Positions 3,788-62,400 of a DNA stretch of 64,000 nucleotides are shown piece after piece (position 1 is the stretch's first letter; the number at the start of each line of letters is the position of its first letter). The translations under genes and the position numbers were made by a program. This DNA is from Actinomycetes bacterium (GTDB lineage: Bacteria; Actinomycetota; Actinomycetes; JACCUZ01): the NCBI GenBank assembly GCA_035489715.1, contig DATHAP010000021.1:694-64693 (forward strand), given 5' to 3'. The notes beneath the pieces were generated by a model that was not told the DNA's origin, did not search any database, and was given only the letters and a program-made list of their open reading frames with translations.

Positions 3788-4608
3788 GGCCGGTCCCGTC
3801 CCTCGGCGGAGTACGCGGTGGCGACCCGCCGGAAGCCGACCCGCGAGTAGACCCGGGCCACCTCCGGCGAGCTCGCGGTGAGGAAGACCGTGCCGACGCC
3901 GAGCGCCCGGGCGTCGTCGACGAGCGCGCGGGTGACGGCTGTGCCCAGACCTGCACGACGAGCAGCAGGCAGCGTGGCCACCCCCATGACCTCGGTGACC
4001 CCGTCGATGGGCAGCGTGCGGCCGGCGGCGAGCACTCCCTGCGCGTCCGACTCAGCGACCGCCATCCGCACGGCCCCTTCCGCGAGGAGGCCGAGCACCC
4101 GCTGCTGCACCGGTCGCAGCCGCGCGTCCCGCTCGCGGGTGCCCTGCTCCCCTCGGGTCGTCCCGGCGCTGCCGAAGGCGAGCTCGCTGACGGCCCGGCC
4201 GGCCGCGACCGCCGCCTCGTCCGCGGGCCCGAGCAGGCGGACCCGCACGCCGGACGGGAGCGCGGACGGGTGGTCCTCGCCGGCGTCGTCCAACACCATG
4301 AGCGGCAGCTCCGTGACGGTGAGCGAGCCCTCGTGCTGCACGGCTGCGAGCAGGCCGGGCGTCGTCTCGTCGACCCACTCGAGCACCTCCGGCAGCCCCA
4401 GATGGCGCAGCCGGCCGGTCGCGGCCGCCACGTCCACCGCGTCTAACCCGCCCGCCCCTGCGGTGCCATCGAGCCGCGGCCGCGCGTAGTAGACCCAGCC
4501 ACCGGGCTCGCCGAGGAAGAGCGTGAACGGCCCGCAGTCCTCGACCCGTGCGAAGCGTCGCGGGACGGCGTCGTAGTAGCGCTCGATGCGCTCCAGCAGC
4601 GGCGTCAC
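3784..4608 (-). CDS. GNAT family N-acetyltransferase
   Basis: 274-aa ORF with a C-terminal GNAT core ([20 protein letters not shown]...). Overlaps the neighbouring genes by 4 nt at both ends. Confidence 0.65.
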
Positions 4609-5867
4609 CGTCCGGGTCCTGCCGGTCGCAGCGCACGGGTGACCGTCGTGCGCGCCACCTCACGGCCGCGGTACCAGACGTGGGTGGGTGGGTCCTGCAG
4701 GCGCAGCACCTCCGGCCAGCTGCCGGCCGCGTAGACCTGCAGGTCGGCCCGCGCGCCCGCTTCGACGCCGTACGTCGTCCCGAGCCGCCACGACCCGGCC
4801 GGGACGCTGGTCACCGCGGCGAGGCAGGTCGCGAGCTCGTCCTGCGTGGTCAGGTGCGCCGCGTGCGCGGAGACGAGTGCCACCTCGAGCAGGTCCCCCC
4901 GGCCGAACGGGTAGAACCCGTCGGCGACGCAGTCCTGCCCGAAGGCCACCGGCACGCCCGCGGCGAGCAGCTCGCGGACCCGGGTGGTGCCGCGCCGCAC
5001 CAGGCCGGTGTCGCCACGGCCCTGGAGCACCAGGTTCGTCACCGGGTTCGACACGACGGTGATCCCGGCCCGGGCGCAACCCGCGACGACCTGCGCCGCG
5101 TACTCCTCGTCCGCGGCGCTGAGCGCACACACGTGGCCGACCGTCACCCGGCCCCGCCACCCGCGGCGCTCGGTCTCGTCGACCACCATGGCGAGGGTGC
5201 GCACCGACCCGTCGTCGGTCTCGTCGACGTGCATGTCGACGTCCGCGTCGTGCCGCTGGGCCAGCTCGAAGCAGAGCCGGACGTGCTCGCGCTGGTCGGC
5301 CTCGCCGAGCTCCCAGTGCGGCATGCCCCCGACGACGGTGGCGCCCTCCGCCATGGCGCGCTGCATCAGGTCGAACGCGCCGGGGTCCCTGAGCAGGCCC
5401 TCCTGCGGGAAGGCGACCACCTGCACCTCGGCCACGTCCGCGCAGTCCTGCGCCGCCGCGAGCACGCCCTGGAGCGGGACCAGGCCGCCGACCGTGTCGA
5501 CGTCGACGTGCGACCTCAGCCGGGTGGTGCCGGTGAGGACGGACGACTCGATGACGGCGCGGGCCCGACGCCGGACGTCGTCGACGAGGTAGCCGCTCTT
5601 GGCGGCGTGGATCGAGTCGATCGCGCCGCGCAGCGTGCCGTCGTGCTCGGCCAGCTGGTCGCGGATCAGCACCTTGTCGAGGTGCACGTGGGTGTCGACG
5701 AACGCCGGCAGCAGCAGGCCGCCCGCCGCGTCGACCCGCCGGGCGGGCGGGACGCCGTGGCGGTCGGCCGCGCCGGGCCCGACGGCGGTGACCGTCTCGC
5801 CGGCGACGACGACGTCCACGGGCGACCCGTCCGCCATCGTCGCGGCCACCACCGCGTGCTCCGTCAT
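4605..5867 (-). CDS. Amidohydrolase family protein (cytosine deaminase-like metal-dependent hydrolase)
   Basis: HxH metal motif ([10 protein letters not shown]), HVDE and other TIM-barrel amidohydrolase motifs. Start chosen at MTEHAVVAA (M18 of the ORF). Confidence 0.8.
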
Positions 5868-7570: not shown

Positions 7571-8080
7571 TCAGTCGTCGGCAAGCTCCGGGGGCCACAC
7601 CACGCGAAACCGTTCGAAGACGACCTCGATCTGGTCGTGGAACTCCACGCCGATCCGGCCCAGGCTGCGCCGGAGGAAGCGGCTGTGGCCGTCGAGCCAG
7701 GACTCGCGGGTGCGGTCACCCTCTCCCTCGTCCCAGGCGAACGCCTCGTCGACGCTGGCCAGCGGACCTATCCGCAGCTCCGTGCTGCGCAGCACCACCC
7801 GAGGGGCCCCCGACCCGTCGTGCACGACCCAGTGCTCGCCGATGCGGGGGAGGGACTCCCCGGCGTGCAGGTAGTCGGCGACCGCGCCTGCGGTGGCCCG
7901 CTTGGGCCCGTGCATCACCAGGTCGAGCAGCTCGTCGGCGAGCTCGGCCGAGTCGCCGAACCGCTCCGACACCGGCGTCTCGGCACGGTGCTCGGGGTGC
8001 CTGGTGACGTACTCCGCCCACATCCGCCCGGCCGCGTCGCGGTCGAGGTCGGGCTGGGGATGGTCGTCGCCGGTCGTCAT
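7571..8080 (-). CDS. ASCH domain-containing protein
   Basis: 169-aa ORF. Size and sequence pattern resemble ASCH/PUA-like proteins (GxKxATAG-like segment HGPKRATAG). Confidence 0.55.
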   Translation of the reverse strand: MTTGDDHPQPDLDRDAAGRMWAEYVTRHPEHRAETPVSERFGDSAELADELLDLVMHGPKRATAGAVADYLHAGESLPRIGEHWVVHDGSGAPRVVLRSTELRIGPLASVDEAFAWDEGEGDRTRESWLDGHSRFLRRSLGRIGVEFHDQIEVVFERFRVVWPPELADD

Positions 8081-9634: not shown

Positions 9635-10446
9635 CGGACCGGCCGGTCGGTGATCACCGGACCGGCGTCGTCGTAGGCCATCCGGGACCACCCCTTGACC
9701 GTGTTGACGGTCCAGGGCCGCACCTCGATGCCCGCCGCGCGCCACTGCGCGGCGCGGGCCTGGGTGACCGAGCCCACCCCGATGACGTACGTCGACCCGT
9801 ACGGCAGGACGGCGTCGGCGGGGCGGGGCTCGCCGGAGAAGTCGATGATGCCGGTGGCGACGGCGGGCTCCTTCGCGCGCACCTGCGCGATCGTCTCCTC
9901 GTCGAAGCTGATCACCCGGACCCGGGCCAGCATGCCGAGCCAGCGGATGCGGTTGAGGAAGTCGTCGAGCTGCTGGGCCGTCGGCCGGCCCTTGAGCTCG
10001 AGCTGGAAGGTCGCGCCGCGGGTGCGCCCGAAGTCGAGGGCCTGCCGCAGCGTCGGCACCTTGACGCCGGCGAACTCCGGTGAGAACCATGAGCCGGCGT
10101 CCAGCGAGCGCAGCTCGGCCAGCGTCGTGCGGGACACCCGGCCGGTCCCGTCGGTGGTCCGGTCGACCGTCGAGTCGTGCAGCACGACCGGGATCCCGGA
10201 CCGGGTGAAACGCACGTCGACGTCGAGCTGGGTGGTGCCGGCCCGCAGCGCGGCCCGGTAGGCCGGGATGGTGTTCTCGGGAGCCGCGTACGAGGCGCCG
10301 CGGTGGGCGATCGGCGGGGCGACGCAGTCGGCGGTCGCGGCGCGTGCCGGGCCTGCGGTCAGGGCGGGGACGAGCGCGACCGAGGCGGCGACCGCGAGAA
10401 CGGCGGACAGGACCTGGGTGCGGGTGGTCGTCGGACGGACAGCCAC
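9601..10446 (-). CDS. Glycerophosphodiester phosphodiesterase family protein (secreted)
   Basis: GDPD motifs IAHRGAS...PENT and VLHD. Signal-peptide-like N-terminus. GTG start chosen at codon 49 of the ORF. Confidence 0.8.
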
Positions 10447-40303: not shown

Positions 40304-41359
40304 TCAGGCGGCCTTCGCGGTGCGCCGCGACGCGGGCTTGACCGGGCGGCGCAGCAGCCGCAGCACCGCGGCCTCGATCTGCCCGTGGGTCGCCGGCTGG
40401 CCGAAGCTGGCCTCGGCGCCGAGCCGCTCGAGCGACCGTTGGATCGTCACGCCGTCGTCGTAGAGGTCGAGGACGCGCGGGTCGATGTAGGAGCTGCGGC
40501 AGACGGCCGGTGTGTTGCCGAGGTACTCCGAGACCTCCTTGACCACCCGGGTCACCGCCCGCTTGCGCGCGGTCGCGGACGTCGGTGCCTGGGTGGAGAC
40601 GGCGAGCCCGACGGCGGTGAGGACGGTGGCGTGCCAGGTGCGGAAGTCCTTGGCGCTCACCTCCTCGCCGACCACCTCGCGCAGGTAGGCGTTGATGTCG
40701 GCGCTCGTCACGTCGTGCCACCCTGTGCGGTCGCGGTAGGCCAGCAGCTCCTTGCTCGGGTCGTCGCGCTTGAGCAGTGCGACGACGACCTTGCGGACGT
40801 CGTCGTCGACGAGCGCCTGCACGCGCTGCTTGCCGCTCTTGGCGACGTAGTCGAAGACCACGAGGTCACCGGTGACAGTGACGTGCTCGCGCCGCATGGT
40901 CGCCAGGCCGTACGTCCCGTTGGCCTCGGCGTAGCTCTCGCCGCCGACCCGGAAGAAGCCGAGGTCGAGCAGCCGGAAGGCCGCGGCGAGGACCCGGTTG
41001 CGCGTCAGTCCGCGCTCGGCGAGGTGCACCAGGACCTGCTCGCGCGCGGTCGGCAGACGCTTGGCGAAGGTGAGCACCCGCTCGTGCTTCTCGGCATCGC
41101 GCTGCACCCGCCACTCATCGTGGTAGCGGTACTGCCGGCGGCCCGCGGCGTCGGTGCCGAGCGCCTGGATGTGCCCGCGCGGATGAGGACAGATCCAGAC
41201 GTCCTCCCACGCCGGCGGGAGCACGAGGCCCCTGATCCGGGCCAGCGTGTCGGGATCGACGACCTTGGAGCCGTCGTGCCACTCGTAGGAGAAGCCCTTG
41301 CCGCGGCGCACCCGTCTGATGCCGGCGCCCGAGCAGTCGACGCGTCGCAGCCGTGCCAT
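40304..41359 (-). CDS. DNA topoisomerase IB (bacterial poxvirus-type TopIB)
   Basis: 351-aa protein from MARLRRVDCSGAGIRRVRRGKGFSY... with the TopIB catalytic region (SAKDFRTWHAT...) and a C-terminal active-site Tyr context (SYIDPR). Confidence 0.75.
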   Translation of the reverse strand: MARLRRVDCSGAGIRRVRRGKGFSYEWHDGSKVVDPDTLARIRGLVLPPAWEDVWICPHPRGHIQALGTDAAGRRQYRYHDEWRVQRDAEKHERVLTFAKRLPTAREQVLVHLAERGLTRNRVLAAAFRLLDLGFFRVGGESYAEANGTYGLATMRREHVTVTGDLVVFDYVAKSGKQRVQALVDDDVRKVVVALLKRDDPSKELLAYRDRTGWHDVTSADINAYLREVVGEEVSAKDFRTWHATVLTAVGLAVSTQAPTSATARKRAVTRVVKEVSEYLGNTPAVCRSSYIDPRVLDLYDDGVTIQRSLERLGAEASFGQPATHGQIEAAVLRLLRRPVKPASRRTAKAA

Positions 41360-41376
41360 CTCGCCCCCCGCCCGCG

Positions 41377-41685
41377 TCAGCTGGAGTGACCGTTGCTGCC
41401 GGCCGGCTCGGTCGTCGAGGTCGTCGTGGTGTCGTGCTGGCCGCCGAGCCAGGACGGGCGCTTCTCCTGCAGCGTCGGCACCACCCGGTCCGCCGCCTTG
41501 TCCTTGGCCGCGGACAGCGCCTCGCCGGCCTGGTGCTGCAGGCTGCTCGCGGTGCTCTGGACCGCAGGGCTCGACGCGAAGGCGCGGGCGGCCCGACTGA
41601 TCTGCTCGTACCGCGCCCGTCCGGCCCGGCTGCCCAGGACGTAACCTGTGGCGAAGCCGGCGAAGAAGGTGACCTTGGTGCGCAT
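41377..41685 (-). CDS. Hypothetical small protein
   Basis: 102 aa from MRTKVTFFAGFATGYVLGSRAGRARYEQI... with an N-terminal amphipathic or TM segment. Confidence 0.35.
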   Translation of the reverse strand: MRTKVTFFAGFATGYVLGSRAGRARYEQISRAARAFASSPAVQSTASSLQHQAGEALSAAKDKAADRVVPTLQEKRPSWLGGQHDTTTTSTTEPAGSNGHSS

Positions 41686-41824
41686 CGTCTGCTCCCGTGG
41701 ATGGGCGGCTGGAGGACATCGACAAGGGTGCCCCAGGCGTGTCGGGAGAGGGCATACCCGGGCTCTCGCACCCGACACCTTGCGATAACCTGTGCGGGTC
41801 CCCGGCCGGGCCCTGCCCGGCCGT

Positions 41825-41897
41825 TCCCGCATAGCTCAATTGGCAGAGCAACCGGCTGTTAACCGGTAGGTTCCTGGTTCGAGTCCAGGTGCGGGAG
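41825..41897 (+). tRNA. tRNA-Asn (anticodon GTT)
   Basis: Cloverleaf: acceptor TCCCGCA/TGCGGGA, anticodon stem ACCGG/CCGGT with loop CTGTTAA, T-arm CCTGG-TTCGAGT-CCAGG. Confidence 0.85.
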
Positions 41898-41913
41898 CAC
41901 CTCCATCTCACCC

Positions 41914-41987
41914 GGGGCGGTAGCTCAGCCGGTTAGAGCAGGGGACTCATAATCCCTCGGTCCCGGGTTCGAGTCCCGGCCGCCCCA
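41914..41987 (+). tRNA. tRNA-Met (anticodon CAT), elongator type (G1:C72 paired)
   Basis: Acceptor GGGGCGG/CCGCCCC, anticodon loop CTCATAA, T-arm CCGGG-TTCGAGT-CCCGG. Confidence 0.85.
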
Positions 41988-43403
41988 CATGGCCTGGCCT
42001 GGTCGCTTGTTCGTTTGGAGATCGTGAGGGCTGTCCGGAATGTCCCCAGGTGGGCACGCGGTGGGCACATGGTTGTGCCCATCAACTCGGGTGGTGGCCC
42101 TCGGGACCAGTGCCGCGGCGGCCTCGGCGGCGGCCTGCGCGACCTGTGGCATCACGCTGAGGTAGATGTCACGAGTGATCTGGGTGGTGGTGTGCCCGAG
42201 CTGCTCGGACACCACCTTGACGTCGACCCCCGCGGTGAGCGCGAGCGTCGCGGCGACGTGGCGTAAGTCGTGCAGCCGGATGGCGGGCATGTCGTGCCGG
42301 GTGACGAGCCGGTCGAAGCGCTGGGAGACTCCGTTGGGGGTCAGCGCCCGGCCGTCCTCGTGGGTGAACACGAGACCGGTCTCGGTCCAGCCCGCCCCCC
42401 AGCGCAGTCGCAGCTCGTGCTGAGCCTTGCGGTGCCGGCGAAGCACCGCGACGGTAACCGGGTCGAGGGCAACGGTGCGCTCGCTCGCCTCGCTCTTCGG
42501 TCCGTCCCAGTCCCGCTGCGACCCGGCACGGACGGTCGCGGACGCGGCATCCAGGTCGACGTCGACCCAGGACAGCCAGACCGCCTCGGATCGCCGTAGG
42601 CCGCGGAACACGAGCAGGTGCCACAGCGCGTAGAGCCGGTCATAGGCGACGGCGTCGAGGAACGCGCCCGTCTGCGTCGGTGTCCACACCATCACCGGGG
42701 AGGGCCGCCGGCCGGTGCTGCGCCACTGGACGACGCGCTCGTCAGTCCAGACAAGCGCCCGGGGCTTGCGGACCCGCTCGAGCTCGACGTAGAGCACCGG
42801 GTTGTGCGCGATCTTGCGCCGTTTCACGGCGGCGTTAAGGGCGCTGCGTGCAGTGGCGTGCACGGTGCGGATGCGGTTCGGGGTGAGCGGGCGACGTGCC
42901 TGCTTGGTGTCGGTGCGCACGGCCAACAGGCGCGTCAGCATCGCGGATGGCTTGCCTGGGCCGGGTCGGCCGATCAGCCGCATCGCGGCGTAGAGCTCCT
43001 CGAATTCGGTGTCGCGCAGGTCGGCCAGCCGGACATGCCCGAGGCCCGGCTTCAGGTAGAGCTCGATGTGGTGCTCGTAGGACGTCCGGGTCGAGGCCTT
43101 CAAGGCCAGCTTTCCGGCCATCCAGTCATCCAAGAACTGCGCGAAGGTCAGCCCGCGGTCTCTCTCGATGTGGGTGCCCTTGTGCACCTGGTCCAGGACC
43201 GCCACCATCGCGGCCTCGGCGTCACGGCGGGATTCGAACGGCCCCACCTTGACCTGACGACGACGACCGTCCACGCCACGGGGTGCGTCGTAGCGAAACC
43301 ACCAGCTGCCGTGGCCACGCTGCCCTCGCCGAGGGCAGCGTGCACCCAACTGTCGACCGGACGCGTCGCGGCAGCCGCATCGCTGCATCGTCGACCCGCG
43401 CAT
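41925..43403 (-). mobile_element. Tyrosine-type site-specific integrase (phage/ICE integrase); its 3' end overlaps the tRNA-Met gene
   Basis: N-terminus M..QRCGCRDASGRQLGARCP...GSWWFRYDAP typical of actinobacterial integrases. C-terminal catalytic R...HxxR...Y region (LHDLRHVAATLAL...TRDIYL). The ORF has no stop until inside the tRNA-Met sequence. Confidence 0.85.
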
Positions 43404-47454: not shown

Positions 47455-48003
47455 ACCATGGTTGCACCGGAAGGCGGTCCCGGCGAGTGGGTGCTGCTCA
47501 CCTACCGGCTGCCGCGCGAGCCATCCACACCCCGCAGCGCCGTCTGGCGCCGGCTGCGCCGACTCGGCGTCGCCCAGCTCAGCGACGGACTGGTCGCGCT
47601 GCCCGCCGATGCTCGCACCCGCGAGCAGCTCGAGTGGATCGCCGACCAGGTCCGCGAAGCCGACGGGACCGCGGCCGTGTGGCTGGCTCGCCCGGCCTCG
47701 GCCGCGCACGAGCGGGAGATCGCCGTGGACATGGCAGCTGCCCGTGCCGGCGAGTACGTTCCGCTGCGCGAGCACGCGGAACGGGTCCACGCCGACGTGT
47801 CGCTCTCCGAGCCCGACCGGGCCCGCGCCGTCCGCCGACTGCGCGCGGATCTGCACCGCATCCGCCGGCGTGACTACTTCCCACCTCCCGAACGCGACCT
47901 GGCGCTGGCCGCCATCGACGCGCTCGCCCGCAGCGTCGCCACCCCCACCGGCGCTGCGACCCGCCACGCCGCGCTGCCTGTCGGCGAGGGGCAGCGACGA
48001 TGA
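47455..48003 (+). CDS. ChrB-like protein, N-terminal domain (chromate resistance regulator family)
   Basis: WVLLTYRLPREPSTPRSAVWRRLRRLGVAQLSDGLVALP matches the ChrB N-terminal signature. Divergent from the MFS gene. Confidence 0.55.
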   Translation, partial: TMVAPEGGPGEWVLLTYRLPREPSTPRSAVWRRLRRLGVAQLSDGLVALPADARTREQLEWIADQVREADGTAAVWLARPASAAHEREIAVDMAAARAGEYVPLREHAERVHADVSLSEPDRARAVRRLRADLHRIRRRDYFPPPERDLALAAIDALARSVATPTGAATRHAALPVGEGQRR

Positions 48004-48422
48004 AGTGGGTGACCCGTCAGTCCGTGCACATCGACCGGGCCGCGTGCGCCTGGCTGATCCGCCGCTTCATCGACCCGACCGCCGACTTCGAGTTTGTCGC
48101 CGACCCCGACGAGGTCCCCGCCGACGCGACCCTCTTCGACATGCCGGGTGTCGATCTGTCCCACCACGGCGACGACTGCACCTTCGAGACTTTGCTGCGT
48201 CGCCACCATCTCACCGACCCCGTTCTGTGGCGCCTCGCCGCACTGGTCCACGAGGCCGACATCGACGACGGCCACTACGACGCCCCCGAGGCGCCCGGCT
48301 TCGACATCGCGCTGCGCGGGCTGAGCATGGTCGCCGACGACGACCGCGTCCTCGAGCTGACCGGGCCGTTGTTCGAGGGAACCTACCGAGTTCTTCCGCC
48401 GCCAGCTCCTCCTCGGAAATGA
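48000..48422 (+). CDS. ChrB-like protein, C-terminal domain
   Basis: MKWVTRQSVHIDRAACAWLIRRFIDP... matches the ChrB C-terminal domain pattern. ATGA overlap with the preceding ORF. Confidence 0.55.
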   Translation: MKWVTRQSVHIDRAACAWLIRRFIDPTADFEFVADPDEVPADATLFDMPGVDLSHHGDDCTFETLLRRHHLTDPVLWRLAALVHEADIDDGHYDAPEAPGFDIALRGLSMVADDDRVLELTGPLFEGTYRVLPPPAPPRK

Positions 48423-56617: not shown

Positions 56618-56893
56618 GTGACCATCGAAGGCATTATCGGCGCCCTTATCATCGGCGCGATCATCGGCGTCCTGGGACGCCTGATCGTCCCAGGCAAACA
56701 GGACATCCCCATCTGGCTGACAATCGCGGTCGGCATCGTCGCCGCCCTCATCGGATCGGCGATCGTCGGTCCGCTGCGCGACACCGACGGCATCGACTGG
56801 GTCGAGCTCATCGTGCAGGTCGCGCTGGCCGCGCTCGGCGTGTATCTCGTGGCCAGCTTGCGGGGCCGTGGCCGCACTACCCACCACGTCTGA
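56618..56893 (+). CDS. GlsB/YeaQ/YmgE family stress-response membrane protein
   Basis: GIIGALIIGAIIGVLGRLIVPGKQDIPIWLTIAVGIVAALIGSAIVG is the family signature. GAAGGAG SD before the GTG. Confidence 0.7.
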   Translation: MTIEGIIGALIIGAIIGVLGRLIVPGKQDIPIWLTIAVGIVAALIGSAIVGPLRDTDGIDWVELIVQVALAALGVYLVASLRGRGRTTHHV

Positions 56894-57027
56894 CCTTGCC
56901 TGCAGCCCGCGTTCGCCCGCCCCTCCGCAGCGGGCCCTGGCTGCCTGGGTGTCACGCACCGGCGTCTATTCCGCAATCGCGCGACTAGACGCCGCTTCCC
57001 GGTCTCATGCTTATCCGGGTTCAGCAC

Positions 57028-57174
57028 TCAGCCCATGATGATTAGACAGCCGATGATCAAGCCCATCCCGGCGAGGAGCAGCGGGTCAAGCGCACTGGCG
57101 TTGGGCATCCGGACGCCGGTGTGGAAGCCACCGGCCGCCAGACCAGCGACCAGCAGGATTGAGAGCCAGCTCAC
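57028..57174 (-). CDS. Candidate 48-aa hydrophobic peptide
   Basis: GTG-initiated ORF VSWLSILLVAGLAAGGFHTGV...LLLAGMGLIIGCLIIMG with a GGAAGAAG SD-like stretch upstream. Convergent with the yeaQ-like gene. Confidence 0.2.
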   Translation of the reverse strand: MSWLSILLVAGLAAGGFHTGVRMPNASALDPLLLAGMGLIIGCLIIMG

Positions 57175-57254
57175 TCGAAAACTCGCTTCTTCCGTTGCTT
57201 GCTAGCCGCTGCCTCGTCTCGGCAGGCGGCGACTCGCCCCGACGTGATCCATGT

Positions 57255-57284
57255 TTGACACGACGCTTATGTCGTGTCTAGCAT
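57255..57284 (+). promoter_or_regulatory. Candidate promoter of the sulfate transporter operon with an embedded 8-6-8 inverted repeat
   Basis: TTGACA, an 18-nt spacer, then TAGCAT. The spacer holds the perfect IR GACACGAC-gcttat-GTCGTGTC. Confidence 0.45.
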
Positions 57285-57302
57285 CCTAACCACTGTAAAT
57301 CA

Positions 57303-58364
57303 GTGGAGAAAGGGATGATCATGGGGTTTTGGCGCGGCAAGCGGCGCGTGGCTTCGGTAACTGTGGCGGCGGCCGTCCTTGGTGGACTCAGCGCCTGCGC
57401 CAGCACCGAGCCGGATTCGGAGGCGGCGGCCTCGTCGTCGGAGGGCAAGACCGTCGAACTGTCGCTGGTGGCGTACTCCACACCGCAGGCAGCCTTCGAG
57501 CAGATCATCGCAGCCTTCCAGGAGACCGGGGCCGGCCAGAACGTCAAGTTCACCCAGTCCTACGGCGGCTCGGGCGACCAGAGCCGCGCCGTGGAAGCCG
57601 GACTTCCGGCCGACTTCGTGATGTTCTCCCTGGAGACCGACATGACCCGCCTGGTGGACGCCGGCATGGTGGACCCCGCGTGGAACACCGATGAGCACAA
57701 GGGCATGATCACCGACTCCGTTGTCGCCCTGGTCACCCGCAAGGGCAACCCGGACGGCATCCAGGACTGGTCGGACCTGACCAAGAAGGGTGTCGAGGTC
57801 ATCACCCCGAACCCCTTCGCCTCCGGCGGCGCCCGGTGGAACCTCATGGCGGGCTACGGCGCGCAGGTGACCAACGGTGCCTCCGAGGCAGAAGGCGAGC
57901 AGTACCTCGCCGACCTGCTCGCAAACGTCCCGGTGCAGGACGAGAGCGCCCGGGCTTCTCTCCAGACCTTCACCGGCGGCAAGGGCGATGTACTGATCGG
58001 CTACGAGAACGAGGCCATCTTCGCTCAGCAGAATGGTCAGGACATCGACTACGTCGTCCCGGACTCCACCATCCTGATCGAGAACCCGGCGGCGATCACC
58101 AGCACTACCAAGCACCCCAAGGAGGCCCAGGCGTTCCTCGACTTCGTGCACGGCGAGGAGGCTCAGAAGATCTTCGCGGAGAACGGCTACCGACCGATCG
58201 TCGAGGGTGCGGACACCGCGGGGCAGGACTTCCCCGAGCCCTCGGGTCTGTTCACGATCGAGGAGCTGGGCGGCTGGGATGAGGTCGCCACGAAGTTCTT
58301 CGACGCCGAGAACGGCATCGTCACCGAGATCGAGCGCAACCTCGGCGTCTCGACCGAGAAGTAG
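57303..58364 (+). CDS. sbp: Sulfate/thiosulfate ABC transporter substrate-binding lipoprotein
   Basis: Lipobox-like signal (LGGLSACAS) and sulfate-binding protein family pattern throughout. 353 aa. Confidence 0.85.
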   Translation: MEKGMIMGFWRGKRRVASVTVAAAVLGGLSACASTEPDSEAAASSSEGKTVELSLVAYSTPQAAFEQIIAAFQETGAGQNVKFTQSYGGSGDQSRAVEAGLPADFVMFSLETDMTRLVDAGMVDPAWNTDEHKGMITDSVVALVTRKGNPDGIQDWSDLTKKGVEVITPNPFASGGARWNLMAGYGAQVTNGASEAEGEQYLADLLANVPVQDESARASLQTFTGGKGDVLIGYENEAIFAQQNGQDIDYVVPDSTILIENPAAITSTTKHPKEAQAFLDFVHGEEAQKIFAENGYRPIVEGADTAGQDFPEPSGLFTIEELGGWDEVATKFFDAENGIVTEIERNLGVSTEK

Positions 58365-58373
58365 CGAGAGCCT

Positions 58374-59240
58374 TTGACCAGCAACATGGCCGGCGCCGGC
58401 GTGAGCCTCCTCCCTAGGGCCACGCCGGCGCCACCGGCCGCGCCGCCACGGCGCCCCCTCCACGGCAGAGGACAGGCGATCGGCCTCGGCTTCGTCGTCC
58501 TCTACCTCAGCCTCATCGTCCTTATCCCGCTGGCCGCAGTAGTGGCCAAGGGACAGGAGAACGGCTTCTCCGGGTTCTGGAACGCCGTCACCACGCCCGA
58601 GGCCGCCTCCACCCTCAAGCTGACCATCGGAGCCTCCTTCGTGGTCGCGCTGATCAACGCCGTCATGGGAACTTTGATCGCCTGGGTACTCGTCCGGGAG
58701 CGTGTCCCCGGGCGGGCGGTGTTGGACTCGCTCATCGATCTGCCGTTCGCCCTCCCGACGATCGTCGCCGGGCTGGCGCTCCTGACCGTCTACGGAGCAC
58801 AAAGTCCGGTTGGGCTCGACATCGCCTACACCCGGCTGGCAGTGGTCGTGGCGTTGCTGTTCGTCACGTTGCCTTTCGTGGTGCGGACCGTCCAACCGGT
58901 CCTCTTGGAGCTGGACACCGAGATGGAGCAGGCCGCCGCGTCGCTCGGCGCCGGACCAGCCACCATCTTCTTTCGGATCGTCCTTCCCAACATCGTCCCC
59001 GCCATCGCCGCGGGGACCGCGCTGTCCTTCGCGCGGGCCATGAGTGAGTTCGGGTCAACCGTGCTCATCTCGGGCAACCTGCCCTTCCAGACCCAAGTGG
59101 CATCCGTGCACATCTTCAACCAGCTCGAAGGCGACAACCTCACCGGCGCAGCAGCGGTCTCCACCGTCCTGCTCGTCGTGTCCCTCGTCGTCCTCGTGGC
59201 ACTCGACCTGCTGCAACGCTGGGCGGCCCGCCGTGGCTAG
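58374..59240 (+). CDS. cysT: Sulfate ABC transporter permease CysT
   Basis: 6 TM helices with the ABC permease EAA-like loop (AASLGAGPATIFFRIVLPN). Confidence 0.85.
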   Translation: MTSNMAGAGVSLLPRATPAPPAAPPRRPLHGRGQAIGLGFVVLYLSLIVLIPLAAVVAKGQENGFSGFWNAVTTPEAASTLKLTIGASFVVALINAVMGTLIAWVLVRERVPGRAVLDSLIDLPFALPTIVAGLALLTVYGAQSPVGLDIAYTRLAVVVALLFVTLPFVVRTVQPVLLELDTEMEQAAASLGAGPATIFFRIVLPNIVPAIAAGTALSFARAMSEFGSTVLISGNLPFQTQVASVHIFNQLEGDNLTGAAAVSTVLLVVSLVVLVALDLLQRWAARRG

Positions 59241-60042
59241 CCCGGGGGTCCTCGTGCGACCGGCCCTCAAGGGCGTTGCGCTGCTCTACCTCACGTTCCT
59301 TCTCGTCATCCCGGTTGCGTTGATCTTCTACCGCACCTTCGAGAACGGCATCCAGCCGGTGATCGACGGGCTCACCGACCCAGCCACGGTCCACGCCTTC
59401 CAGATCACCGCCGTGGTCGCCTTCTGGGCGGTGGTCGCCAACACCATCTTCGGTGTGACGACGGCGATCCTGCTGGTGCGCCACGACTTCCGCGGCAAGC
59501 GCGTGCTCAACGCCCTGATCGACCTGCCTCTGGCAGTCTCACCCGTCATCGTCGGTCTCGCGCTGATCCTCGTCTACGGGAGCACCACCGGCATCGGTCA
59601 GACCTTGTCCGGCATCGGCGTGAAGGTGATCTTCTCCATCCCGGGCATGGTGATGGCAACCATCTTCGTCTGCATCCCGCTCGTCGTGCGCGCAGTCGCC
59701 CCCGTCCTGGAGGAGATCGGCAACGACCAGGAGCAGGCGGCCGCCACTCTGGGTGCCGGACCCGTACAGACCTTCCTGCGGATCACCCTGCCCTCGATCC
59801 GGGGCGCGCTCGCTTACGGCGTCGTCCTGGCACTCGCCCGCTCGCTCGGCGAGTACGGCGCCGTCGCCGTGGTCTCCGGCCGGCTCGTTGGTCGAACGCA
59901 GACCGTCACGCTGCTGGTCCAGGAGCGATACCTCAACTTCGACCAGGAGACGGCGTACGCTTGCGCCCTGCTTCTCGTGGTCACCGCCGTGCTGGCGTTG
60001 ATCGTCAGTCGCCTCTTGGCGCCCAAGGAGATCACCCGATGA
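59233..60042 (+). CDS. cysW: Sulfate ABC transporter permease CysW
   Basis: GTG start overlapping the cysT stop. EAA loop [19 protein letters not shown]. Confidence 0.85.
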
Positions 60043-61004
60043 GCATCATCGTCCGCGACGTGTCGAAGAACTTCGGCGACTTCTCGGCCCTGAAAGACGT
60101 GTCCGTCGAGATCCCCACCGGCGGCCTGACCGCTCTGCTGGGGCCGAGCGGCGGCGGCAAGTCCACCCTCCTGCGGGTCATCGCCGGCTTGGAGAAGCCC
60201 GACAGCGGCTCGGTGGAGATCGAAGGCCGTGAGGCGACCTCCCTCCGCCCGCAGGAGCGAGGTGTCGGGTTCGTCTTCCAGCACTACGCAGCGTTCAAGC
60301 ACCTGTCCGTACGGCGCAACGTGGCGTTCGGACTGGAGATCCGCAAGCAGCCGAAGGACGAAGTGCGCCGGCGCGTCGACGAGCTGCTCGAACTTGTCCA
60401 CCTGGAGCAGTTCGCGCACCGGTATCCGGCCCAGCTCTCCGGCGGTCAGCGACAGCGCATGGCACTGGCTCGCGCGCTCGCCGTGGAGCCGGCAGTCCTC
60501 CTGCTCGACGAGCCGTTCGGTGCCCTCGACGCCCAGGTGCGGAAAGAGCTGCGGACATGGCTGCGGCGGCTGCACGACCAGGTGCACGTCACCACGGTCT
60601 TCGTCACCCACGACCAGGAAGAGGCGATGGAGGTTGCCGACTCGATCGTCGTCATGGCTGACGGCGAGGTCAAGCAGGTCGGCACCCCAGACCAGCTTTA
60701 CGACGCGCCAGCTAACGACTTCGTCATGAGCTTCCTCGGGCCGGTAACCCGCCTCGGAGGCAAGCTCATCCGGCCGCATGACATCGAACTCTTCCCGCAC
60801 CGTGAGAACAACACCGAAGAAGCCACCGTCGAGCGCGTCACCCGGCTCGGCTTCGAGGTACGGGTCGACTTGCTCGTCGCGGGCGAGGAACTCTGGGCAC
60901 AGGTCACCCGCGGAACGGCCGAGCAGTTCGGCCTCGAAGGCGGGCAGACGGTGTATGTGCGCCCCGCTCGGGACCGGCGCATCGCACCCGTGGCGGCGGG
61001 GTGA
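60039..61004 (+). CDS. cysA: Sulfate/thiosulfate ABC transporter ATP-binding protein CysA
   Basis: Walker [10 protein letters not shown], signature LSGGQRQR, Walker [12 protein letters not shown] and a C-terminal TOBE-like domain. ATGA overlap with cysW. Confidence 0.9.
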
Positions 61005-61073
61005 CGGCGCCCACTTTCCCGCGATGCATCACCTAACCGTTCGCCGGGTGGCCGGCCGCACGCCCCACTGGTC

Positions 61074-61526
61074 GTGAACGTTCCATCGCGGGTGGACTTC
61101 GCGCTCCGGGCCACGATTGTCCTTGCCGAGTCGCCAGAAACCCTTCTGAGCAGAGGGGAGATCGCACGCTTGCAGCGAATCCCCGCACCCGTCCTGACTG
61201 ACATCCTGGTGGCGATGAAGCGTCGTGGGTTGATCGCCAACACCCTCGGCCCGAACGGGGGGTATCGACTAGCCCGCCCCCCAGCCAGTATCACGCTCGG
61301 GGACATAGTTCGCGCCGTCGACGGCCCCCTTGCTTTGATCGGGGACCGGCACCCTGGCGACCTTTCGTACGCCGGACCGACGGCCGCGCTTAGAACGGTG
61401 TGGCTCGCCGTGCGAGGAAGCCTCGCCGACGTGCTCGACAACGTCACCTTGGAGCACGTACAGCGCCGACAGCTGCCTCAGCGCATCGTTGACATCGCCA
61501 CGGAGTACGGGCTCGACGAGCGTTGA
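61074..61526 (+). CDS. Rrf2 family transcriptional regulator
   Basis: N-terminal winged HTH typical of Rrf2 (DFALRATIVLAE...GEIARLQRIPAPVLTDILVAMKRRGLIANTLGPNGGYRLARP). Confidence 0.8.
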   Translation: MNVPSRVDFALRATIVLAESPETLLSRGEIARLQRIPAPVLTDILVAMKRRGLIANTLGPNGGYRLARPPASITLGDIVRAVDGPLALIGDRHPGDLSYAGPTAALRTVWLAVRGSLADVLDNVTLEHVQRRQLPQRIVDIATEYGLDER

Positions 61527-61592
61527 CCGCCGCGCCGACCCCGTGCGCTGGGCGCATTGTCGCTGGGGAACAAGTGTCGAAGCCGATGCGGG

Positions 61593-61988
61593 TCAGTACG
61601 CATAGATGTCCACCAGAAAAGCACCCAGCATCGTCAGCGCAGCAAGAACACCGACTTCTGCCGCTCGCTGTGACCGGGCCACTGCCAATGACAAGAGCGC
61701 ACTGGAACCCCCCAGAGTGAACACTCCTGAGCCAACGTCCTGCCAGCTCACAGGAAAGGGCCTGAAAGGCAGGTCATGCGAGAACATCGAAGTCGTCTCC
61801 GTCGTGCGAAGAATTATGTTCCACGCAAGTGGCGAGAGAAAGGCGGTCAGGCCACACGCCGCTAAGACGAGCATCCTTCGCTCTCTGGCGATGACCAGCA
61901 CAAAAATCACCGCAGCCAGAACGGACCACAGGGCGCCATACAGCATGTGCCCGTAGCTCATGTCACCTCCCGCGCGTGCGACGCGCAC
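61593..61988 (-). CDS. Hypothetical membrane protein (4 TM)
   Basis: 131-aa ORF with hydrophobic periodicity. No motif. Confidence 0.4.
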   Translation of the reverse strand: MRVARAGGDMSYGHMLYGALWSVLAAVIFVLVIARERRMLVLAACGLTAFLSPLAWNIILRTTETTSMFSHDLPFRPFPVSWQDVGSGVFTLGGSSALLSLAVARSQRAAEVGVLAALTMLGAFLVDIYAY

Positions 61989-62079
61989 CAGACAGCCGCC
62001 GGTGCTGTATGGCTGGCGGCCGCCGGCAGCTAATTCGCTGTAGTCTTCGGAAGGTACCCGGTTCGCCTTCCTGAACGCC

Positions 62080-62400
62080 CAATATTGGTACTCGCCGGAG
62101 GCGTCGGGTCACGGCGTGAGCTGCTCAGACCCCACGCTTATCGTGGTCACCGGCAACGGCGGGCTACACCTGTACTACCAACTACATGAGCAGGCGCCGT
62201 TCATCGAGAGGCCGACCCATGCCAACCACCGCCGTCGAAGTTCTGCACGACGACGGGCGCTGGTACCTCGCGTAGTTGCTCGGGCAGCACCGCGACCGGG
62301 CGACCGGCGAGCGGCGCTGCGGTGTCCGATACTCGGCGGCGCCAGGGATGGCGTATCGGCGCGTTGTCTGGGCCGACCAGTGCCGGCGCTACCGCCACAT
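62080..62400 (+). pseudogene. Possible remnant of an archaeo-eukaryotic-type primase (PrimPol) gene
   Basis: Frame X encodes ...TLIVVTGNGGLHLYYQLHEQAPFIE, which fits AEP motif II (sGxGGxHxY). The frame is interrupted after about 40 residues and continues in an offset frame that runs into a TAG. Confidence 0.25.

Follow-up and report, generated by a model that had tools for sequence, protein, structure and literature searches.

In Bacillus subtilis and Staphylococcus aureus, CymR is the Rrf2-family master repressor of the genes for cysteine and sulfur uptake, and it binds DNA in a manner that requires complex formation with CysK (O-acetylserine thiol-lyase), responding to cysteine and O-acetylserine. 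Here we analyze a gene for another Rrf2-family protein that follows the sulfate importer genes sbp-cysTWA in a 64,000-nt stretch of DNA from an Actinomycetes bacterium (contig DATHAP010000021.1). This stretch is referred to below as the window; its numbering is used throughout, and the loci compared with it are designated L001, L002, and so on. We lean slightly towards a reading in which the locus is an operon for sulfate import whose co-transcribed Rrf2 gene encodes a cluster-free protein acting as a negative feedback repressor of the sbp promoter. The window protein resembles CymR in having the Rrf2 fold without an Fe-S cluster, in its link to sulfur acquisition genes and in its presumed role as a repressor; however, the two proteins are not orthologous, the window protein differs from CymR in its C-terminus (EYGLDER), and its role appears to be that of a local regulator encoded in the operon rather than of a global one. 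Thiol-oxidation sensing has been described for S. aureus CymR (PMC9338935), and sensing of this type is impossible in the window protein, because it contains no cysteine.

Two other kinds of described systems are relevant for comparison. The Rrf2 proteins IscR, NsrR, and RsrR are dimeric winged helix-turn-helix repressors that recognize pseudo-palindromes of ~23 bp or longer overlapping promoters; the window protein shares their fold and their wing motif Gx6Gx2GGx2L (PMC9338935), but lacks the cluster ligands, and the loop that bears these ligands in the three proteins corresponds to the low-confidence segment (residues 85-89) of its structural model. McbR, CysR, and SsuR of Corynebacterium glutamicum and CysB of Escherichia coli are functional analogues that tie the genes of sulfate uptake and reduction to the sulfur status; however, they belong to unrelated families (TetR, ROK, and LysR), and CysR and CysB are mainly activators binding upstream of the -35 element. 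The CysR sites are 10-bp inverted repeats with spacers of 6-8 bp (PMC2580772). The CysB-like regulators had not been identified in mycobacteria according to a 2011 review (PMC3141025). The Rv1287 gene of Mycobacterium tuberculosis is listed in the cysDNC block, and its expression falls together with that of cysD-cysNC (PMC10470581).

The importer operon and its cysteine-free Rrf2 protein

The four importer genes are encoded on the forward strand in a single operon, and each of their products passes a sulfate-specific NCBIfam model, as expected for a sulfate/thiosulfate ATP-binding cassette (ABC) importer. The sbp (subI) gene (57321-58364) encodes a sulfate-binding lipoprotein of 347 amino acids (aa) with the lipobox LSAC (TIGR00971, 180.6 bits at a cutoff of 155.5; Pfam SBP_bac_11), cysT (58374-59240) and cysW (59254-60042) encode the permeases (TIGR02139, 290.9 bits, cutoff 246.1, and TIGR00969, 294.4 bits, cutoff 240, respectively), and cysA (60039-61004) encodes the ATPase with a TOBE domain (TIGR00968, 407.1 bits, cutoff 342.75; Pfam ABC_tran and TOBE). 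The GTG start of cysW is taken from the gene call in L037, and its product scores below the cutoff of the CysW equivalog model TIGR02140 (294.7 vs. 329.1 bits). The cysA gene overlaps the stop codon of cysW by 4 nt, and the other importer genes are 9-13 nt apart. The operon itself is a routine one.

The Rrf2 gene (61074-61526, forward strand, GTG start, 150 aa) lies 69 nt past the stop codon of cysA (at 61004); both the gene order sbp-cysTWA-Rrf2 and the distance of ~70 bp given in an earlier description of this DNA, hereafter the original prediction, are confirmed. No promoter-like or terminator-like site and no obvious Shine-Dalgarno sequence were found in the gap between the two genes (61005-61073, forward strand). 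Because of the lack of such promoter-like or terminator-like sites, read-through transcription from cysA is the simplest reading, and we infer that cysA and the Rrf2 gene are co-transcribed. The gap is ~70% identical to that of L001, which is near the neutral level. A CCTAACC string upstream of the Rrf2 gene was considered as an autoregulation site and rejected, as it is not kept in L001.

The family assignment of the protein is supported by Pfam PF02082 (E = 2.7e-30; 105.7 bits at a cutoff of 30; profile positions 3-129 of 132) and by TIGR00738 (93.3 bits, cutoff 73.3). In its AlphaFold model (mean predicted local distance difference test, pLDDT, 84.8; predicted template modeling score, pTM, 0.83), the fold is that of the family, which is defined by a winged helix-turn-helix at the N-terminus and a long helix for dimerization: the top 37 PDB matches obtained with Foldseek are all Rrf2 proteins, the best being B. 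subtilis CymR (2y75; 27% identity, E = 1e-6), followed by IscR, RsrR, and S. aureus CymR. The original prediction had pointed to the control of sulfur uptake by CymR in Firmicutes. The profile matches agree with its identification of a sulfate importer and an Rrf2 regulator, but the score of 53.1 bits against the CymR equivalog model NF047409, with a cutoff of 195, sets the protein apart from CymR orthologues. No cysK was found among the open reading frames (ORFs) scanned in the 64-kb window.

An Fe-S sensor of this family requires three cysteines and a fourth ligand, and the original prediction had suggested that three such cysteines be looked for. The window protein has none, and thus cannot hold an Fe-S cluster. 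Its homologues beside sulfur genes likewise lack cysteine, and the cysteine count is at most one in all 34 compared proteins, i.e., the window protein and 33 others from L001-L034, some of which are not encoded beside sulfur genes. Comparison with the 83%-identical protein of L001 gives a ratio of nonsynonymous to synonymous substitution rates (dN/dS) of 0.15, indicating purifying selection; hence, the gene is a working, non-decaying one. The DNA-contact surface is atypical for the family: the recognition helix reads PAPVLTDILVAM in place of P-x-KFLExIL, the wing reads NTLG in place of S/Q-R-R-G, and the nearly invariant Arg58 is Leu58 in the window, so that the family consensus IPxKFLExIL...S/QRRGxxGGY corresponds to IPAPVLTDILVAM...NTLGPNGGY and the family-typical DNA-contact residues are missing. 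The equivalents of Leu58 in described proteins, NsrR Arg60 and IscR Arg59, read the minor groove at the operator ends (PMC9338935). The C-terminal tail links the protein to the nearest sbp-linked group, whose members end in EYGVDERP, giving the common motif EYG(L/V)DER(P).

A scan with the sbp protein, using one genome per species, identified 25 loci, all in metagenome-assembled genomes (MAGs) of uncultured Actinomycetota, 21 of which have enough flanking DNA. An Rrf2 homologue adjoins sbp-cysTWA in 19 of the 21, in four gene arrangements. It is convergent downstream of cysA in the closest MAGs (L012-L016 and L032; 47-49% identity), divergent upstream of sbp in Ilumatobacteraceae (L017-L021, L025, L026, and L034), and on the same strand downstream of cysA in an Acidimicrobiales MAG (L033) as well as in the window. 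The fourth arrangement, found in Solirubrobacterales (L028, L029, and L031), has two Rrf2 paralogues flanking one operon, the upstream gene being divergent and the downstream gene convergent. An adjacent Rrf2 gene is clearly missing only from the two Microthrixaceae loci. The pairing thus recurs in Acidimicrobiia, Thermoleophilia, and unclassified Actinomycetota MAGs, and this conserved neighbourhood strongly backs a functional link between the Rrf2 protein and the importer.

The association extends beyond the importer genes. A ~40%-identical homologue is encoded after cysD-cysNC-cysQ in Mycolicibacterium thermoresistibile (L006); it belongs to the same cysteine-poor clade, shares the conserved family positions, and, as in the window, its gene stands at the 3' end of a sulfate-assimilation operon. 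The two cases differ in that the partner in the window is a transporter operon and not the genes for ATP sulfurylase and adenosine 5'-phosphosulfate (APS) kinase, and in that the recognition helix and the wing arginine of the window protein have diverged. Other homologues of ~40% identity adjoin a TauE/SafE-family permease in Streptomyces and Janibacter (L008 and L010), and those of 44-47% identity (L002 and L003-L005) are not beside recognisable sulfur genes; the 311-aa gene that takes the place of the transporter beside Rrf2 in L002 has no family match. The SEED annotation already names such proteins as predicted regulators of sulfate adenylyltransferase. The window gene, encoding a protein without cysteine and located beside sulfate uptake genes, falls into this sulfate-linked clade, for which no experimental characterization was found in the literature searched. 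The pairing of Rrf2 with sulfate genes in Actinobacteria, which the original prediction had regarded as unusual, is therefore widespread and has already been predicted at the annotation level.

Several further elements were noted at these loci. The convergent genes of L012-L016 and L032 all have the sequence CTGACAGAGTG 7 nt before the Rrf2 start codon, which looks like an extended -10 element of a leaderless mRNA; it was the only conserved element that emerged when the regions upstream of the convergent group A Rrf2 genes were searched for sites of autoregulation. Directly upstream of the cysD promoter region of M. thermoresistibile (L006, ~4108-4277), a 20-nt unit (CGCACACTCGACGCTGCGCC and variants) is repeated in tandem approximately eight times. 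In Streptomyces (L008, ~7790-7985), where the TauE permease gene follows Rrf2, the region upstream of the Rrf2 start is filled by a long, G-rich array of tandem GGGCGGAC-like repeats. In L012 (~5799-5824), a perfect inverted repeat with 10-nt arms, CGTCGACCAC-GTAAAC-GTGGTCGACG, is located 200 nt upstream of sbp and probably serves as the terminator for the gene before it.

The sbp promoter, its spacer palindrome, and the leader repeat

A consensus scan identified the sbp promoter on the forward strand as a -35 hexamer TTGACA (57255-57260) and a -10 hexamer TAGCAT (57279-57284) separated by 18 nt. It is sigma-70-like, matching the consensus at 10 of 12 positions, and is the sole such site on either strand of the 56800-62200 region (shuffle mean 0.2). 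The -35 hexamer is 100% kept in L037, L038, L039, L042, and L043; the -10 hexamer is 100% kept in L037 and L039 and lines up with TATAGT/TAGAGT of more distant relatives. As reported in the original prediction, the spacer carries a perfect 8-6-8 inverted repeat (57257-57278) composed of GACACGAC (57257-57264), gcttat, and GTCGTGTC (57271-57278). The symmetry extends to 14-nt arms (57251-57284), in which 12 of 14 positions are complementary. Counting all perfect inverted repeats whose arms are 8 nt long and whose spacers measure 0-12 nt gives 69 for the window, compared to ~49 in first-order Markov shuffles; thus, in DNA of 71.5% G+C, such a repeat by itself is commonplace. The probability that a random spacer forms an 8-nt-arm repeat inside this fixed promoter is ~0.002. 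The palindrome is therefore statistically modest by itself, and its position is the unusual part. The further copies for which the original prediction had suggested a search did not appear: there is no second copy in the 64-kb window, where the only other match (three mismatches) is at chance level, and among the 36 loci L001-L036, at up to two mismatches, only a match in a coding region of L015 was found. If transcribed, the palindrome would fold with a predicted energy of -12 kcal/mol, yet it lies upstream of the predicted transcription start; because of this position and the lack of a U-tract, it is neither a terminator nor a riboswitch.

The closest orthologous promoters available are those of three relatives, L037 and L038 (sbp 93% identical) and L039 (83%); TTTGACA...TAGCAT and the entire leader are common to all three and the window. 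Compared with L037 and L039, the window is 100% identical in both promoter hexamers, 97% and 94% identical, respectively, in the leader (57285-57320), 72% and 50% in the spacer, and 69% and 53% in the unconstrained DNA upstream of the -35 element. At a synonymous divergence of 0.47-0.70 among these genomes, the spacer is no better kept than the unconstrained DNA, and hence it behaves as neutral sequence. The arms in L037, GACACGTC and GTCGTGCC, retain 6 of 8 pairs around a loop of 5 nt, which is 1 nt shorter, two substitutions and one indel separating them from the perfect repeat of the window; in L039, 4 of 8 pairs are left and the outer GACAC/GTGCC alone survive. All these substitutions break the symmetry and none is compensatory. 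The surviving outer bases are accounted for by TTGACAc of the -35 element and by a GTGC element that immediately precedes the -10 hexamer and is also present in the more distant group A promoters, where there is no palindrome. None was found in L042, L043, and L044 either, which share the promoter architecture and have unrelated spacers.

The spacer palindrome is thus neither kept nor symmetrically co-varying in the orthologous promoters. Most likely, it arose recently or by accident in this one lineage, and a perfect repeat could easily have drifted from a partly symmetric ancestor; it is probably not a conserved binding site of the adjacent Rrf2 protein. L037 and L001 were also considered as parts of one genome; since their overlap differs by ~12%, they represent related strains and not one contig.

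The best-conserved non-coding element of the locus is another inverted repeat, CCACTG-taaat-CAGTGG (57290-57306, ~+1 to +17), in the leader. In the three available relatives its arms are invariant, the sole substitution falling in the loop, which makes it, on present comparisons, a better supported operator candidate than the spacer palindrome. It extends over the predicted start of transcription and into the beginning of the Shine-Dalgarno region GGAGAAAGGG (57305-57314, forward strand; 6-12 nt before the ATG at 57321), in which GAGAAAGG is invariant across all close relatives. The surrounding leader sequence CCTAACCACTGTAA(A/G)TCAGTGGAGAAAGG is nearly invariant in the same three genomes. An exact metagenome scan with the conserved leader AACCACTGTAANTCAGTGGAGAAAGG gave as its sole match one contig already among the compared loci. 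An explanation of the leader as an RNA element was tried and is not supported: the stability of the hairpin does not differ significantly from that of shuffled sequences (z = -0.3), the leaders of L042 and L043 are unstructured, and there is no Rfam match at E<0.5. Leader conservation is due in part to an extended Shine-Dalgarno sequence; the rest may reflect either an operator in the DNA at +1 or an element that acts on the stability or translation of the mRNA. All sbp genes of the wider clade have related leaders, and the much better conservation of the sbp leader relative to the spacer was also observed across several clades (L012-L016, L028, L035, L040, and L042-L044), with the variants AACAACAGTTTCTTGATGGAGAAAGG, ACCAGTAACTCGATCAAGAAAGG, and CCTAACTAAGCCAGTCAAGAAAGG, which have no stable fold or Rfam family.

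A different candidate operator emerged from the divergent arrangement. In the eight Ilumatobacteraceae Rrf2-sbp intergenic regions, the most conserved block is a 23-bp palindrome of the 11-1-11 type, TTTCCTACCAT-A-CTGCTGGGAAA (TTTCCTACCATACTGCTGGGAAA), which lies over the sbp -10 element (for example, at ~5703-5725 of L018). L026 has the near-perfect variant TTCACAGCAT-A-ATGCTGTGAA (TTCACAGCATAATGCTGTGAA), in which a C:G pair is exchanged symmetrically for A:T. Such conservation combined with symmetric change is the behaviour expected of the site of a local Rrf2 repressor, and we consider this palindrome a strong candidate Rrf2 operator in the Ilumatobacteraceae clade. An 8-mer enrichment analysis allowing one mismatch in 17 representative regions revealed no operator shared across the Rrf2-linked sulfur promoters above the level of shuffled sequences, which is consistent with the divergent recognition helices. 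A resemblance to the McbR motif was considered and dropped, as it found no confirmation in PMC2580772.

Proposed regulation and alternative explanations

In the mechanism that we slightly favor, a single strong sigma-70-type promoter would drive sbp-cysT-cysW-cysA together with the Rrf2 gene as the fifth gene of the operon. Its product, a divergent member of the actinobacterial Rrf2 clade habitually found beside sulfate uptake and activation genes, would act as a local repressor of the sbp promoter, where the leader repeat at 57290-57306 is the best-conserved operator candidate. Since the Rrf2 protein would be made by read-through from the very promoter that it represses, the circuit would constitute a negative feedback loop. 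Repression would presumably be relieved by a sulfur-status signal, conveyed by a small ligand or a partner protein, because Fe-S or thiol chemistry is impossible in this protein.

Several observations weigh against this reading. The loss of the wing arginine and the altered recognition helix suggest that DNA binding may be atypical, and no Shine-Dalgarno sequence is visible at the Rrf2 start codon. The leader repeat is only a 6-5-6 element of 17 bp, shorter than the 23-bp NsrR sites (PMC9338935), its conservation is explained in part by the extended Shine-Dalgarno sequence described above, and a similar leader is kept in L042, where cysA is not followed by Rrf2. Moreover, the operator proposed for Ilumatobacteraceae is not transferable to other clades, because no motif is shared beyond chance.

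The original prediction placed the operator of the adjacent Rrf2 in the spacer palindrome, where the bound protein would occlude RNA polymerase. This proposal, possibly in the form of a recent lineage-specific gain, seems to us unlikely. Its appeal lies in the perfect symmetry set exactly between the -35 and -10 hexamers, in the low chance of such a repeat in a random spacer, and in dimensions (8-bp arms and a 6-bp centre, 22 bp in total) that resemble the 23-bp NsrR site with its sequence-insensitive 7-bp centre (PMC9338935); furthermore, the Ilumatobacteraceae relatives do have a palindrome that lies over the core promoter, and the re-tooled recognition helix and wing of the window protein would fit a new operator. 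However, the spacer diverges as unconstrained DNA does while the flanking -35, -10, and leader segments stay at 94-100% identity, the arm pairs are lost in L037 and L039 with no compensatory change, the outer bases have another explanation, the same architecture exists without the repeat in L042-L044, and the repeat is one of 69 in the window and has no other copy there. Still less credible is a variant in which the palindrome is a real operator of a different dimeric repressor encoded elsewhere, which may also control the divergent small membrane ORF described below; we regard it as very improbable. The palindrome does lie in the 146-bp divergent intergenic region between that ORF (57031-57174, minus strand) and sbp, and arms of 5-10 bp with spacers of 6-8 bp are used by actinobacterial sulfur regulators such as CysR (PMC2580772), but the non-conservation of the spacer counts equally against any repressor, and the window offers neither a candidate regulator nor a second copy of the site.

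Alternatively, the Rrf2 protein could be a neighbour and not a regulator of the importer, having other targets, with sbp-cysTWA controlled by an unlinked factor such as a SigH/R-type sigma factor or a ROK-, LysR-, or TetR-type protein. The use of McbR, CysR, and SsuR in corynebacteria (PMC2580772), the 44-47%-identical homologues that lack recognisable sulfur neighbours, and the failure of motif comparison to assign an operator all agree with such a scenario. However, adjacency to sulfate genes kept through four arrangements and several classes is hard to explain without functional coupling, and the divergent arrangement has a conserved palindrome over the sbp -10 element. We therefore consider it improbable that the two are unconnected, and a shade more so than that the spacer palindrome is the Rrf2 operator.

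The locus is of some value for the family-level pattern behind it and not for the operon itself; this pattern extends an existing annotation-level prediction and overturns nothing. With no CysB-like regulator known in mycobacteria as of 2011, an uncharacterised Rrf2 clade that includes a gene co-regulated with cysDNC in M. tuberculosis is the obvious candidate across several actinobacterial classes, and its cysteine-free members must rely on an effector mechanism that differs from both of those known for the family. We tentatively propose, while judging the balance to be somewhat against it, that a phylum-wide clade of cysteine-free, cluster-free Rrf2 proteins, comprising the window gene, the Acidimicrobiia and Thermoleophilia genes that flank sbp-cysTWA, and the genes in the position of Rv1287 after mycobacterial cysD-cysNC, might be the long-missing dedicated regulator of sulfate uptake and activation in Actinomycetota. 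Such a regulator would sense sulfur status otherwise than by an Fe-S cluster or a CymR-CysK complex, and the window variant, with its rebuilt helix and wing, would also have gained a new operator.

Surroundings of the operon

A hydrophobic ORF of 48 aa (57031-57174, minus strand) is divergent from sbp and shares with it the 146-bp intergenic region that contains the sbp promoter. It has no Pfam match; its nucleotide identity is 91% in L037/L038 and 83% in L039, and it is called as a 54-aa gene on all three of these contigs. In L042, the gene after cysA (9882-10412) is not Rrf2 but encodes a cysteine dioxygenase (CDO_I), another sulfur-metabolism neighbour.

Further upstream in the window, the genes for tRNA-Asn (41825-41898) and tRNA-Met (41914-41988) precede an ORF for a tyrosine integrase (41925-43403, minus strand), and a gene for a bacterial type IB topoisomerase (40304-41911) adjoins the tRNA genes. 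The G+C content falls from ~73% at 1-40 kb to ~67% at 48-64 kb. The sulfate operon, in the 43000-64000 part of the window, may be located on an integrated island; a search inside the window for att-like direct repeats gave none. A protein with a ChrB C-terminal domain is encoded at 48000-48422, 9 kb upstream of the operon. ChrB represents a family of chromate-resistance regulators, and chromate is a sulfate analogue.

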